This document shows positions 2,104-12,720 of a DNA stretch of 64,000 bases, piece after piece. This DNA is from a phage. A program made the position numbers and the translations under genes. The stretch lies in sequence record NC_100327.1. One strand, given 5' to 3'. The notes under the pieces were generated by a model. It ran no database searches, had not been told where the DNA came from, and saw only the letters and a list, made by a program, of their open reading frames with translations. Positions within the stretch are counted from its first letter, which is position 1. Each line of letters starts with the position of its first letter.

Positions 2104-2212
2104 AATGTTTTCCTCTCTTCTGGTTGTTGTGTGGGCACTTTTGCCCCTTCAAGATAAATGTTACCCCACCACCTGGCAGATGTCAACGGTTTTTATAGTT
2201 CTTATATGACAG

Positions 2213-2250
2213 GCAGGCCCGGTGATTGTCTCCCCCGTCGCCAGGTGCCT
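2213..2250 (-). promoter_or_regulatory. Conserved GC-rich promoter-proximal element, copy A (GGCAGGCACC..GACGGGGGAGACAATCACCGGGCCTGCC)
   Basis: Lies just downstream of the promoter at 2262-2289; near-identical copies at 11383-11420 and 11527-11568, each just downstream of a promoter. Confidence 0.5.
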
Positions 2251-2261
2251 GCCGTGTAATA

Positions 2262-4153: not shown

Positions 4154-4215
4154 GATGATTCACCTATCTTTATTTTTCATAGTTTCAGGAGGGGGCCTTT
4201 TCGGCCCCGCCAGGT

Positions 4216-8252: not shown

Positions 8253-8474
8253 TTATTTGCCTTTGTGGCGGTATCGTTCCGCCTGTCGTTCACGTTCCAA
8301 AAGCAGGCCCGGTAATTTGCGATCATAGTGATTCCTCCAGATCTTCCCGAACCTTTTCGGTTTATTCAGTTTATTGTTACGCTGGCGGCGTTCCGGCAGC
8401 TCTTCGGAATCGTGGGGGCGCTTTACAATTTTTTCGAAATTAATTTTCATAAATTTCCCCTTTACTAATTTCAA
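8253..8474 (-). CDS. hypothetical basic protein (73 aa)
   Basis: ORF-track ORF; Lys/Arg-rich. Confidence 0.4.
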   Translation of the reverse strand: MKLVKGKFMKINFEKIVKRPHDSEELPERRQRNNKLNKPKRFGKIWRNHYDRKLPGLLLERERQAERYRHKGK

Positions 8475-8793
8475 TATTTGCCTGAATCGCCCGGATACGA
8501 CGTTTTATGACCTCCTGATCCTTGCAATCATATCCCCAAAAGTCTACGATCTTTGCGCCTCCGGCCTTTAGGCGGTATAGTGTTTCCTGCATCTTGTAAG
8601 CTGGGATCGGTCGCGGTGTTACCTGGTCGCCTCTCTCATCTTTGTACTTGATTATGTAGTCTTCGTTGTCGTTGAATACCCAAAATGGGTATTCTGTGAG
8701 CGCGTTGCTATCTTTTTCGTTTTTAGATTGGATCTTGTTTACAATTAAAGCCGTAGCAATAGCGCCAATAATAAAACTAGCCCCGCTGATCAT
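8440..8793 (-). CDS. membrane-anchored protein; start ATG at 8793 (MISGASFIIGAIATALIV...)
   Basis: RBS AAAGGAGAAAG before the ATG at 8793; N-terminal transmembrane helix. Confidence 0.5.
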   Translation of the reverse strand: MISGASFIIGAIATALIVNKIQSKNEKDSNALTEYPFWVFNDNEDYIIKYKDERGDQVTPRPIPAYKMQETLYRLKAGGAKIVDFWGYDCKDQEVIKRRIRAIQANIEISKGEIYEN

Positions 8794-10301: not shown

Positions 10302-10700
10302 TTATTCGTGGGCGCATGTTACAATGTGTTTTTTATAGCCCAGGTGGTCAGCAAGTGCCGACAAAAACTTTTCTTCGTAGATCCAGCCGTCGGCAGTGAT
10401 CCCCATAGCATTTAATGCGCTCTCAAGTGCTGCGTTAGCTTTATCGTAACCGTGACCGCTCGCCTTGCCGCCAGTATAACCGTACTTATTGTTCTTGTTG
10501 TCGTGAATCCAAAACACGCAGTAGTGAGTGTTCCCGCTGGCGGCGGCATAATACCGGATCTCAGCTACTTCGTGCAAATTATTGTCATCGTCCAGGCCCA
10601 CCAGATTATAAGCCTTGTAAAATCCACGATCACGGCGGCAGTTCTTGACATCAGAAAAAGAAAAGTCCGCATTATCAAAATTAAAGGTAGTGGTTTTCAT
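10302..10700 (-). CDS. hypothetical protein (132 aa)
   Basis: ORF-track ORF; RBS AAGAGGATAAAATC; promoter at 10733-10761. Confidence 0.5.
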   Translation of the reverse strand: MKTTTFNFDNADFSFSDVKNCRRDRGFYKAYNLVGLDDDNNLHEVAEIRYYAAASGNTHYCVFWIHDNKNNKYGYTGGKASGHGYDKANAALESALNAMGITADGWIYEEKFLSALADHLGYKKHIVTCAHE

Positions 10701-10732
10701 GATTTTATCCTCTTAGTGTCTTTTGTGCTTTT

Positions 10733-10761
10733 AGTGTATTTGGTGTCGGACTATATGTCAA
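10733..10761 (-). promoter_or_regulatory. sigma70-type promoter (TTGACA, 17 bp, TACACT)
   Basis: Read on the minus strand upstream of 10302-10700. Confidence 0.45.
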
Positions 10762-10764
10762 TAC

Positions 10765-10962
10765 TTATTTTTTATTAAACCAGTGGTTGATCTGTCCTTT
10801 TGTCAGGGCGCAACGATTAAGCTGTTGCCGGGTATAGCTCTGACCGCGACGGAATTTATAAAGGCCTTGCCCGTTGTTGATGGTTACGTCCACCTGGCAA
10901 ACCATTTGATCGGTGACCACCTGGCGAGTGTTGCGACGTACTTTGATCCCGTATGCGTTCAT
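10765..10962 (-). CDS. hypothetical basic protein; start ATG at 10962 (MNAYGIKVRR...)
   Basis: RBS AAAGAGGA before the ATG; the track start lies inside promoter 11013-11040, so the true start is downstream. Confidence 0.45.
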   Translation of the reverse strand: MNAYGIKVRRNTRQVVTDQMVCQVDVTINNGQGLYKFRRGQSYTRQQLNRCALTKGQINHWFNKK

Positions 10963-11012
10963 AAATTTATCCTCTTTACTGGTTAGTGCGGTGTTGTTCA
11001 CCTTGTAGGGTA

Positions 11013-11040
11013 ATAATACCATGATTAACCTTGTTGTCAA
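11013..11040 (-). promoter_or_regulatory. sigma70-type promoter (TTGACA, 16 bp, TATTAT)
   Basis: Read on the minus strand upstream of 10765-10962. Confidence 0.5.
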
Positions 11041-11339
11041 CGATTATTTTAAATTATTTTTATGATAGAATCCACCTGCCGCCCCCGCCAGGTTAACCAC
11101 CATTTTTTCGTACTCTTCTTTATGTTCCCGCGCTTCTGTATCATTAATCACTACATTTCCAGGTGAGTAGCATTACCTTTCATTTTTGTACCTCCTCTTC
11201 AATTGTTTACCCTACAGCATGGGCCTACCAGGTTTGCAAGATTTCACCCTCTCCCACCTGGTCAGTTAGGTCCTGCCAGGCTGGCCCCGCCAGGTTGCAG
11301 CGGTTAGCGCATCAGGTTAGAAAAATTTTTTGAAAAGTG

Positions 11340-11368
11340 TTGACAGCGGCCCCGACAGGTGGCACAAT
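11340..11368 (+). promoter_or_regulatory. sigma70-type promoter (TTGACA, 17 bp, CACAAT) reading into the non-coding region
   Basis: Plus-strand hexamers; GC-rich element copy B begins about 15 nt downstream. Confidence 0.4.
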
Positions 11369-11382
11369 ATACCTATCGAAAG

Positions 11383-11420
11383 GACGGCAGGCACCGGTGA
11401 CGGGGGAGACAACCACCAGG
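11383..11420 (+). promoter_or_regulatory. Conserved GC-rich promoter-proximal element, copy B
   Basis: ggacggcaggcaccggtgacgggggagacaaccaccagg; followed at 11440-11455 by GAGAACGGTTATCATT. Confidence 0.5.
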
Positions 11421-11483
11421 GATGAGCGCTGCATAAAATGAGAACGGTTATCATTATCATTTAAAAATTTATGCAAAAAATCC

Positions 11484-11511
11484 TTGCTTTCTTTGTCCTG
11501 TGTGATACTAT
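11484..11511 (+). promoter_or_regulatory. candidate sigma70-type promoter (TTGCTT, 16 bp, TACTAT; overlapping TATAAT)
   Basis: Plus-strand hexamers just upstream of GC-rich element copy C. Confidence 0.35.
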
Positions 11512-11526
11512 AATAACAAGCCGGGG

Positions 11527-11568
11527 CAACAGGGGCCGGGAGACAATCACCGGGCCTGCCCGTTATTC
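11527..11568 (+). promoter_or_regulatory. Conserved GC-rich promoter-proximal element, copy C
   Basis: caacaggggccgggagacaatcaccgggcctgcc; followed at 11576-11591 by GAGAATGATTATCATT. Confidence 0.5.
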
Positions 11569-11707
11569 TGCAAACGAGAATGATTATCATTCAAGATTCT
11601 AAATGAGAACTCCTCGCATTTAATAAATTTAATTAGCACGCTAATTACCCTCCGTAACAATTTACTATAAAATAGTATCCACTAAAATATTCCCATATAG
11701 AAATTTT

Positions 11708-11884
11708 AAAAATCCATTTCTGAAAACGAAAAATCGATTTCGTCCCCAAAAATTTCAGGTTGAGAGCCGGAACGATTTCCAGAAAATCCGATTCAGAAAA
11801 CGAAAAACAGATCGAGTACTGAGAAATTTATCGAGAAAAATTTTCAGAAAATCCAAGCCCTGAAATGAAAAGTAGATCGAGTAC
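11708..11884. repeat. Iteron-like array of three about 40-bp direct repeats (core GAAAATCC..GAAAACGAAAAA..GATCGAGTAC)
   Basis: Units at about 11708-11742, 11781-11819 and 11845-11884; related partial copies near 12059-12100 and 12140-12160. Confidence 0.5.
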
Positions 11885-12196
11885 CTGGAAAGCTGCACCG
11901 CAACTTCAAGATAGCGGTTAGATTGTTACCATAGAAGGTCAAGGGTAAGTGGAGGAAGTTCTAGTAGAGGGAGGTTAGCATGTGTGGGAAATCTATAATG
12001 GTGGCCTGGAATATGGTGCAAACGATAGAATGAGTTATTCAGCTTGTCGCGCCTACTCTGAAAAATCCATTTTAGTTTTCGATCCATTTTCTGATTTTCT
12101 AAGAATTTTAAAATATCCAGCCCGGTGAAATATCAAAAGGAGGAAATCCATTTTAGAAATCCCCCTTATACTTGATATGCCAGGAATTTTCAAGTA

Positions 12197-12526
12197 TCAG
12201 TTGTCTTTGTTTTTAGGTTTGTACATGCGCAGAGGTATGGTCTTTGTAACATTCCATTTCCTCAACCCTTCCCAGCTCCAGTTGTGGGCGTGGTATCCGG
12301 TTATGCATGCACTACTGGAGTGATCGTAAGCATAAGAGAACGCTAAGCGCACCAGGTGGGGCCAGTCCTTCCATGGTTGTGGACCGTAAGCTTTTCTCCA
12401 ACACCGACACAAACTAAATGTCTCAAGGATAGGAAGGATAACAAATCCATACACCGCCACCAGAATAGCCAGCGCAATGATTGTCAGGAATACATACCCT
12501 GCAGTTGAAATGATGATCTCTGTCAT
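12197..12526 (-). CDS. membrane protein (109 aa)
   Basis: ORF-track ORF; hydrophobic N-terminal segment. Confidence 0.45.
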   Translation of the reverse strand: MTEIIISTAGYVFLTIIALAILVAVYGFVILPILETFSLCRCWRKAYGPQPWKDWPHLVRLAFSYAYDHSSSACITGYHAHNWSWEGLRKWNVTKTIPLRMYKPKNKDN

Positions 12527-12720
12527 TTGTCCTCCCCTTTCTTACGAATATAGATGTGAGAGCCTGCCTGTATATAAATTTCTCGACCATCTTCTGCAAA
12601 GATATGAAATACACGATCACCTTCGTACTCGATACGAGATATTTTCATAATGGTCTTTCCACCTGGGATACGGATCTCGTCCCCCACAGCGATGTTCCAT
12701 GCAGATTTAAGCTTAAACAT
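12523..12720 (-). CDS. hypothetical protein; likely start ATG at 12720 (MFKLKSAW...)
   Basis: RBS AAGGAAGG before the internal ATG; the track start would overlap the upstream gene by 74 nt. Confidence 0.4.
   Translation of the reverse strand: MFKLKSAWNIAVGDEIRIPGGKTIMKISRIEYEGDRVFHIFAEDGREIYIQAGSHIYIRKKGEDK

Follow-up and report, generated by a model that had tools for sequence, protein, structure and literature searches.

The window analysed here, a stretch of 64,000 nucleotides of sequence record NC_100327.1, represents part of the genome of a Vequintavirus (rV5-like) myophage of Escherichia coli. Positions 11041-12196 of this window, hereafter referred to as the hub, are bordered on both sides by minus-strand genes and are 99.8% identical to the corresponding region of phages nomine and CarlMeissner. 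Between 11190 and 12196, the hub contains three sigma-70-like promoters, all on the plus strand and reading in one direction, two GC-rich paralogues that share a GAGACAAYCACC core, three palindromic 21-bp boxes, a segment of 28% GC, three iteron-like repeats of ~70 bp and a second repeat module. As judged by sequence comparison, this 1.1-kb gap is a genuine non-coding control region, the layout of which is common to two phage subfamilies. All sequence items listed in a preliminary description of the locus were recovered at or near the positions given there; a promoter-like site at 11661-11688, a box at 11601, a paralogue of the GC-rich elements at 2200-2256 (minus strand) and the conservation of the layout beyond the genus had been missed.

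The first promoter-like site, PA (TTGACA-17-CACAAT, 11340-11368, plus strand), was identified by a promoter scan with a 10/12 match and contains a TG before the -10 hexamer. PA reads antisense to the flanking genes, its spacer is a copy of a GC-rich element (GGCCCCGCCAGGTTGCA), and its position corresponds to that of the first hub promoter of other genera. The second site, PB (TTGCTT-19-TATAAT, 11484-11514, plus strand), has a perfect -10 hexamer and was read from the sequence, as its 19-nt spacer caused it to be missed by the scan; positionally homologous promoters precede the homologues of the downstream element (unit B, see below) in all genera examined. Both predicted sites agree with the two plus-strand promoters previously noted as antisense to the flanks. 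The third site, P3 (TTTACT-16-TAAAAT, 11661-11688, plus strand), was found by the promoter scan, and PVP-SE1 and a Mydovirus-like phage also have a promoter-like site at this position. A terminator scan of 10700-12600 yielded no plus-strand intrinsic terminator, and hence none after PA, PB or P3, which suggests that these promoters read into the repeats rather than giving rise to discrete short RNAs.

The GC-rich stretches following PA and PB are paralogues with the common core GAGACAAYCACC. Unit A (11376-11436, plus strand; core GAGACAACCACC at 11406-11417) was matched by nhmmer and by a covariance model and is 96-100% conserved in the genus, and unit B (11519-11572, plus strand; core GAGACAATCACC at 11540-11551) shares 70-88% identity with its counterparts in other genera and shows weak covariation in the outer helix only. 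A third paralogue, copy C (2200-2256, minus strand), is located just downstream of its own promoter (TTGCAA-16-TATACT, 2289-2262). In all three paralogues of the window phage, as well as in a second copy present in Mydovirus-like loci, the GAGACAAYCACC element lies ~8-10 nt downstream of a -10 hexamer. The promoter of copy C belongs to a compact terminator-promoter module (2302-2262, minus strand), in which a hairpin at 2302-2269 (ACAGGGC-TTGCAAT-GGTCCTGT) is followed by TTTTTT, with the -35 hexamer TTGCAA placed in the terminator hairpin loop and the T-run forming the promoter spacer. GC-rich dyads similar to that of 2262-2302 were also observed in or beside promoter spacers of related phages. 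The two previously reported hub copies of the GC-rich element GGCCCCGCCAGGTTGCA are present at 11283 and 11348; a further copy at 11078 is weaker, and another was found at 4203 (0.08 expected). The copy at 11283 (11281-11299) contains a small dyad, CTGGC-CCC-GCCAG, and 11275-11300 is 99% conserved in the genus. The copies at 11078, 11283 and 4203 do not form one functional class: the first of these lies in a dead gene and the last reads as a terminator stem.

The 16-bp motif GAGAAY-N3-TATCATT, previously noted in two copies, occurs at 11440 and 11576 and additionally at 129 and 147 (0.24 expected). It constitutes half of a 21-bp palindrome, AAATGAGAATnATTCTCATTT, with hub copies at 11436, 11572 and 11601: box A (AAATGAGAACGGTTATCATTA, 11436-11456) and the boxes B1 (11572-11592) and B2 (11601-11621), which are 29 bp apart. 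Relative to PA and PB, the boxes lie ~60-80 nt downstream, with ~30-50 nt separating them from the promoter that follows, and they do not overlap any -35 or -10 hexamer. When viral contigs were scanned with the exact box pattern, most hits were chance matches, and a BLAST filter left ~15 true loci. In a cross-genus set of 40 boxes from 13 loci, most of which are spaced at 29 bp, deviations from the consensus affected one half-site 66 times and both half-sites 10 times, which points to a protein-binding DNA site rather than an RNA hairpin. Boxes functioning as RNA hairpins or terminators were rejected accordingly, since the deviations are uncompensated on the opposite half-site. The palindrome behaves like a site for a dimeric protein.

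The AT-richest segment (11600-11749), with 28% GC the regional minimum, contains P3 and the start of the first repeat. The three direct repeats of the preliminary description were located at 11696-11752, 11770-11826 and 11835-11891, with spacings of 74 and 65 bp and 63-74% identity over 57 nt; repeat comparison across 11696-11891 gave the core GAAAATCCrwTyCwGAAAAyGAAAAAnAGATCGAGTAC. Tandem Repeats Finder did not report the ~70-bp array, its single row being a 12-bp repeat at 11824-11851. The partial repeat copies noted earlier are likewise present, with AAATCCATTTYWGAAA at 11709, 11783, 12062 and 12143; this motif has 7 matches in the window versus 1.6 expected, and the four best are all located in the hub. 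The repeats are followed by a less conserved, plus-strand G-rich spacer (11900-12050, GC skew +0.52 to +0.55) and by the second repeat module (12059-12160), which comprises AAATCCATTTTAG at 12063 and 12144, GATCCATTTTCTG, and AAATATC at 12111 and 12128, and is 93-100% conserved in the genus. The hub contains only 3 GATC sites and the iterons of Hena1 lack GATC, so that GATC clustering is not a defining feature.

Among nine Vequintaviruses, conservation across 11275-11850 and 12050-12175 mostly reaches 94-100%, a few bins of 25 bp falling to 82-89%, versus 73-92% in the flanks. The higher conservation of the hub core relative to the flanking genes suggests selection on the DNA sequence itself. 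The preliminary description had proposed an alignment with related phages as a check on repeat conservation, and five further Vequintavirinae lineages were indeed found to have three ~70-bp units with a spacing of 63-78 bp; tandem triplets of this design are present in PVP-SE1, ABPH49 and the Mydovirus-like, Certrevirus and Henunavirus phages. Six Vequintavirinae lineages share the same element order: (i) a first promoter followed by a ~95-nt element (RNA1; unit A in Vequintavirus), (ii) a second promoter with a GAGACAAWCACC element, (iii) one to four palindromic boxes, mostly 29 bp apart, (iv) a third promoter-like site and then AAAAAATTTTTT tracts, (v) exactly three ~70-bp repeats with the core AAATACGwTyTnGAAAnyGAAAAACCGATCGAGwACC, and (vi) a variable plus-strand G-rich spacer followed by a module of AAAyCATTTC and AAATATC repeats, which was also identified in other Vequintavirinae phages examined. 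Phapecoctavirus has the same layout with different repeats, which would fit sites co-evolving with a phage-encoded binding protein. BLAST matches to the unit-B segment at 70-88% identity were obtained in Phapecoctavirus, Mydovirus, Seunavirus (PVP-SE1), Certrevirus, Henunavirus and unclassified phages labelled as Serratia or Acinetobacter phages. Beyond the genus, these matches nearly always fall into unannotated DNA, in gaps of 0.8-1.4 kb among genes of opposite orientation.

Several records retrieved with the hub carry unusual labels. The sole match in a plasmid collection, CP057073.1 (137.6 kb, E. coli from cattle faeces), has 93% identity over 97% of the hub query; being as large as a Vequintavirus genome, it looks like a phage of this genus that was deposited under a plasmid label. 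Sixteen "Campylobacter phage" records are ~90-98% identical to the hub region, and their host labels look doubtful. The same applies to the taxon label of Salmonella phage R7 (PQ002170), which is identical to PVP-SE1 at the hub and filed under Demerecviridae; its linear record starts inside the hub with an "attL" repeat.

Saturating Himar1 transposon mutagenesis has been reported for the Vequintavirus Bas54 (MaxBurger, MZ501093; bioRxiv 10.1101/2025.11.20.689424), and its gene-level insertion table (Extended Data Table 8) was mapped onto the window by alignment. The Bas54 and window sequences are 88% identical across hub and flanks, with a nearly identical core and strongly diverged flanks. 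According to this table, insertions are absent from all 11 TA sites of bas54_0101 (11645-11749), classified by the authors as essential, and were recovered at 1/3 sites of bas54_0100 (11755-11901; mean 5 reads) and 5/15 sites of bas54_0102 (11317-11590), for which a strong fitness defect was assigned. Towards the left edge of the hub, bas54_0103 (11044-11183) was hit at 12/14 sites and classified as intermediate. The flanking genes bas54_0099 (ending at 12196; 18/21 sites) and bas54_0104 (left of 10999; 13/13 sites) were both listed as non-essential, i.e. genes adjoining the Bas54 hub carry insertions at 86-100% of their sites. In the same table, the next essential gene lies ~2.5 kb downstream of the hub, and every gene in between tolerates insertions; a polar effect can therefore not explain the gap. 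As far as the tabulated insertions show, the hub core is needed for growth of Bas54, a close relative of the window phage, and the insertion-free segment coincides with the AT-richest 150 bp of the hub. The locus is not discussed by the authors.

One explanation for these insertion data is that the hub encodes small essential proteins, as annotated for bas54_0100 to bas54_0102 and in other records. Bas54 annotates open reading frames (ORFs) of 34, 48 and 92 amino acids in the hub, among them the essential bas54_0101, and a 92-codon frame with an ATG start (11312-11590, minus strand) is intact in 9/9 relatives. However, when variable columns were counted per codon position in the hub alignment of the nine Vequintaviruses, no excess of third-position substitutions was found in the 34-, 47- and 92-amino-acid minus-strand ORFs. 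Variable columns are distributed evenly in the three hub ORFs (5/8/7, 6/5/8 and 11/12/11), compared to 21/7/8 in a neighbouring real gene. The 34-amino-acid ORF (11645-11749, minus strand) has a TTG start with no obvious Shine-Dalgarno sequence upstream and is shortened in 3/9 relatives, the start codon of the 47-amino-acid ORF is not conserved among the aligned Vequintaviruses, and the C-terminus of the 92-codon frame is altered by frameshifts in a homopolymer run. Moreover, hub ORF calls are inconsistent between annotated records of relatives, and in other genera, where the DNA motifs are kept, indel lengths are not divisible by three. The lack of a coding signature argues that the "essential hypothetical proteins" of the Bas54 hub are parts of a non-coding element, and we consider it extremely unlikely that the essential function resides in small proteins. 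Two further candidates were rejected: a 17-amino-acid plus-strand micro-ORF with a good ribosome-binding site (11980-12033), which is interrupted by stop codons in 4/9 relatives, and a leaderless ORF starting from ACATGG of the PVP-SE1 element, the ATG of which is ATA in Certrevirus and which contains indels that are not multiples of three.

The preliminary statement that the region holds no convincing ORF is supported by the codon-position and frame tests for 11190-12196, but not for 11044-11183, which contains a gene remnant. This segment harbours a decayed minus-strand homologue of bas54_0103 (58 amino acids in relatives) with internal stops, a 33-bp deletion and a frameshift. The 58-amino-acid gene (MKGN...EEYEKM...) is intact in Bas54, Gotham and FV3 and also disrupted in JEP1 and ECP2309. 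Judging from these alignments, 11044-11183 is the sole once-coding part of the hub and lies outside its functional core.

Alternatively, the hub might be a cluster of non-coding RNA (ncRNA) genes acting in trans, in which PA and PB would give rise to short RNAs (units A and B) and P3 to a longer RNA that includes the repeats. In that case, the essential role would be carried by the RNAs, e.g. in early-gene regulation or interaction with a host factor. The three promoter-like sites are co-directional and opposed to the flanking genes, between 11300 and 11950 the plus strand is rich in A, like sense strands elsewhere in the genome, the GAGACAAYCACC element keeps its fixed distance to the -10 hexamer, and units A and B fall into the part of the hub with a strong fitness effect in Bas54. 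Furthermore, a two-helix covariance model recovers 43 copies of the GAGACAAYCACC element. In its outer helix, 76% of cells are paired, one pair varies between AU, GC and GU, and some double changes occur; the covariation score of this helix is 0.170 versus 0.138 in shuffles, and its G-U pairs work only on the plus strand. A second promoter-proximal element, RNA1, comprises ~95 nt (ACGCCACCCCACGGCGAAAAGGCGGGGCTAAC...GGAAGGTGGATCGCCGGTAG) downstream of the first hub promoter in non-Vequintavirus genera (L111:1340-1462 in PVP-SE1, with homologues in loci L003, L004, L109 and L112-L116), and is absent from the window, which contains unit A instead. RNA1 is highly conserved, has no match in Rfam, may form a pseudoknot and shows compensatory changes from GC to AU in 7/14 sequences, which leaves room for real RNAs at the hub promoters.

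Other results argue against trans-acting RNAs. RNAalifold produced no consensus structure for the GAGACAAYCACC elements, their single-sequence folds are mostly no better than shuffles, and only 53% of cells are paired in the inner helix. No terminator follows any of the three promoters. The repeat region shows no excess folding over shuffles on either strand (z = +0.65 and -1.07), and a structured long RNA spanning the repeats was rejected on the basis of these near-zero z-scores. Searches against Rfam gave no match at E values up to 1 in the window and one chance-level match only in six related loci. In addition, copy C is not essential in Bas54, where, in the gene-level table, its counterpart overlaps bas54_0130 with insertions at 4/8 TA sites, and the insertion-free segment consists of AT-rich DNA and repeats, not of the GC-rich elements. 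Overall, an ncRNA cluster is a possible but unlikely basis of the growth requirement. A tRNA or tRNA relic, considered because of a tRNA-Met annotated on the unit-B homologue of a Klebsiella phage record, was rejected, as ARAGORN (locus and window) and Rfam searches were empty. In Klebsiella phage K45PH128C2 (OY978796, L003 878-1573), tRNA-Lys, tRNA-Ile and tRNA-Met are annotated opposite the hub elements; none were detected by ARAGORN, and they look like artefacts.

The palindromic boxes resemble binding sites of the ferric uptake regulator Fur of Enterobacterales. Compared with the Fur consensus GATAATGATAATCATTATC, which was confirmed from the literature, the 19-mers at 11440 (11440-11458, at box A) and 11576 match at 16/19 and 15/19 positions, respectively, where ~0.23 such matches are expected per window, and the box half-sites read GAGAAT or GATAAT. 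Across genera, the box ranks with the most conserved sequences of the hub, and the named hosts of these phages, all of which are Enterobacterales except for one Acinetobacter-labelled record, use the Fur consensus, which fits a host factor. On the other hand, the box consensus TGAGAAT-N-ATTCTCA differs from that of Fur by a symmetrical T-to-G change, and the boxes are arrayed mostly at 29-bp intervals, in place of overlapping hexamers, and do not overlap promoter hexamers. A link of the candidate boxes to host Fur is possible. A third Fur-like site (2632-2650, 16/19; GGTAATGATTATCTTTTTC) was observed ~350 nt upstream of copy C, the minus-strand GAGACAAYCACC paralogue.

The hub might also function as a transcription-control array without a role in replication, in which box operators bound by host Fur or a phage repressor, together with the antisense promoters, insulate or time the minus-strand gene blocks. 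The boxes are operator-like in being palindromic, regularly spaced and degenerate at one half-site at a time, their similarity to the Fur consensus exceeds chance, and they recur in a second intergenic region of the window (see below). In addition, the head-on promoters could stop read-through from the upstream block, and a strong minus-strand promoter was predicted by the promoter scan at the left edge of the hub (11040-11013). However, the genes from the hub to ~2.5 kb downstream and the upstream neighbour are dispensable in the Bas54 table, so that their misregulation should not be lethal, which weakens this explanation. The boxes also do not occupy the normal position of a Fur operator over the -35 or -10 hexamers, and no explanation is offered for the three ~70-bp repeats and the second module, although no other parts of the hub are better conserved or less tolerant of insertions. 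We therefore regard a purely regulatory role as rather improbable.

The combination of promoters, phased palindromes, an AT-rich insertion-free segment, iterons and a second repeat module with sequence constraint and a growth requirement is origin-like, and we tentatively favour the interpretation that the hub is a cis-acting lytic replication origin, or one essential part of it, of the transcription-activated, iteron type. In the rV5 paper, skew analysis did not place the origin, and a non-coding box is marked on the map. The preliminary description had left the choice between an origin and a regulator-binding array, possibly also encoding ncRNAs. Its reading of a non-coding element gains from the conservation in the genus and two subfamilies and from the insertion-free core in Bas54, whereas the choice among these functions is an inference, as are transcription from the predicted promoters, protein binding and replication initiation. 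In the proposed mechanism, host RNA polymerase would start at PA, PB and P3, facing against the surrounding genes, and transcription would cross the palindromic box array into the 28%-GC unwinding region and the three ~70-bp iterons. A putative initiator protein may bind the iterons and/or the regularly spaced boxes, the latter of which probably gate hub transcription or help complex assembly. Transcription could then open the AT-rich DNA, as at ori-lambda, or leave an RNA-DNA hybrid primer, as in T7 and at T4 oriF/oriG, with the plus-strand G-rich segment at 11900-12050 as a candidate hybrid site.

This organization shares features with several known origins. Ori-lambda contains an array of spaced dyad-symmetric sites adjoining an AT-rich region, with four iterons, and is subject to transcriptional activation. 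The hub similarly has regularly spaced dyad boxes near AT-rich DNA with promoters reading into or near them, and Certrevirus and Phapecoctavirus relatives have four boxes, equal to the number of lambda iterons. Unlike the hub, which is non-coding, ori-lambda lies inside the initiator gene O; the hub also adds three ~70-bp repeats and a second module, and the window phage has only three boxes, split 1 + 2. At the T7 primary origin and T4 oriF/oriG (uvsY), an AT-rich element directly follows one or more promoters, the transcript of which may serve to prime or open the origin. In the hub, the 28%-GC segment likewise comes after three promoter-like sites in tandem; in contrast to its sigma-70-like promoters followed by repeats, these origins use T7 RNA polymerase or MotA-dependent middle promoters and have no iterons. 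Like the iteron origins of pSC101, R6K (gamma), RK2 (oriV), F (oriS) and P1 (oriR), the hub contains regularly spaced tandem repeats, three in number, beside AT-rich DNA (28% GC, 11600-11749), and its core is needed for propagation of Bas54. Classic iterons, however, are 17-22 bp long, present in 3-7 or more copies ~22 bp apart and accompanied by DnaA boxes, whereas the hub has three ~70-bp units with a conserved core of ~40 bp and no enrichment of DnaA boxes. A further lead is the put RNA of HK022, along with other promoter-proximal RNA elements acting in cis: the hub elements likewise directly follow early promoters and occur in several copies per genome, but are not known to be similar in sequence, and structural support in the hub is weak.

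Several observations weigh against an origin. The repeats number only three, and at ~70 bp and 63-74% identity in the window they are unlike classic iterons. Allowing up to one mismatch to TTWTNCACA, 4 DnaA boxes were found in the 1.16-kb hub compared to 2.7 per kb window-wide, none of which is position-conserved across the genera compared. No initiator candidate was identified among the neighbours of the hub, all of which are of unassigned function. The essentiality data were obtained for the relative Bas54 and not for the window phage, and a transposon screen yields the same outcome for a cis-acting site and a trans-acting RNA, and likewise for a role in replication and one in another process. 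Moreover, weak expression of the selectable anti-CRISPR gene in the head-on transcribed hub could mimic essentiality. A second insertion-free region (see below) is, on position alone, an equally good origin candidate. The nearest essential neighbour (8440-8793, minus strand), a homologue of bas54_0110, encodes a 117-amino-acid protein with a hydrophobic start and no Pfam match; its N-terminus is possibly a transmembrane segment, as judged from its sequence. Our literature search found no published origin, iterons, ncRNAs or transcriptomes for these phages. In the rV5 paper, skew analysis did not place the origin, and a non-coding box is marked on the map.

An essential cis-acting element could also serve DNA packaging, with the hub representing the pac site for headful packaging and its repeats and A/T tracts acting as binding sites of the small terminase. 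The pac sites of P1 and SPP1 are essential cis elements with repeated motifs and bent AT-rich DNA, features reminiscent of the hub. In the available Bas54 annotation, neither a small terminase gene nor a pac site is assigned at the start of the terminase operon. However, known pac sites overlap or adjoin the gene of the small terminase, whereas ~55 kb separate the hub from the terminase operon on the circular map. Nor is it obvious what three promoters directed into the repeats would contribute to packaging. Vequintaviruses are also reported as circularly permuted, and the table entry consulted lists no fixed termini (PMC8407724; PMC13211470). A packaging function of the hub therefore seems very unlikely.

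The second insertion-free region corresponds, according to the same preprint (bioRxiv 10.1101/2025.11.20.689424), to a ~2.5-kb intergenic stretch of Bas54 (92785-95298), part of which is represented by positions 1-1505 of the window. This sequence is non-coding, and lies at a junction of convergent gene blocks. The palindromic box recurs in it at 9-29, 125-145 and 147-165, position 44 has a AAATATCAAGG motif, and successive GTTTACAC-like repeats occupy 421-600. Many further direct and inverted repeats are present in the Bas54 copy of this region, in which neither tRNAs nor Rfam matches were found. The hub and the second region, which are about 11 kb apart, both carry the palindromic box and a AAATATCA motif, and five of the six top-scoring 21-bp box matches in the 64 kb are located in these two regions (~0.6 expected by chance). 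The presence of the box in both suggests that the same protein may bind both regions. Satellite phage P4 requires two separate cis regions (ori and crr), both of which contain the same protein-binding repeats. The arrangement of hub and second region is similar by analogy only, and the shared motif is a palindrome, unlike the P4 octamer. It is conceivable, but in our view quite improbable, that the hub and the 2.5-kb region at the start of the window form a two-part origin resembling P4 ori/crr, in which transcripts of units A and B would act as R-loop primers and host Fur bound to the 29-bp-phased boxes would gate read-through into the iterons. If true, this would couple phage DNA replication to the iron status of the host.

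Elements of this kind are known, and what is new are the design of the hub, its wide conservation and the non-coding reinterpretation of ORFs to which essentiality or fitness effects had been assigned. The latter concerns bas54_0101 (essential) and bas54_0102 (strong fitness defect) of the first genome-wide transposon screen of a phage. The 21-bp box, the three-unit iteron and the GAGACAAYCACC element provide reusable signatures for this group of phages, and the two conserved promoter-proximal elements are unnamed and not represented by any Rfam family. The rV5-like phages (Vequintavirinae) are widely isolated and used in biocontrol and therapy. For these phages, the hub represents a concrete and testable origin candidate, and a defined origin would aid the engineering of the phages themselves and of phage-dependent replicons.

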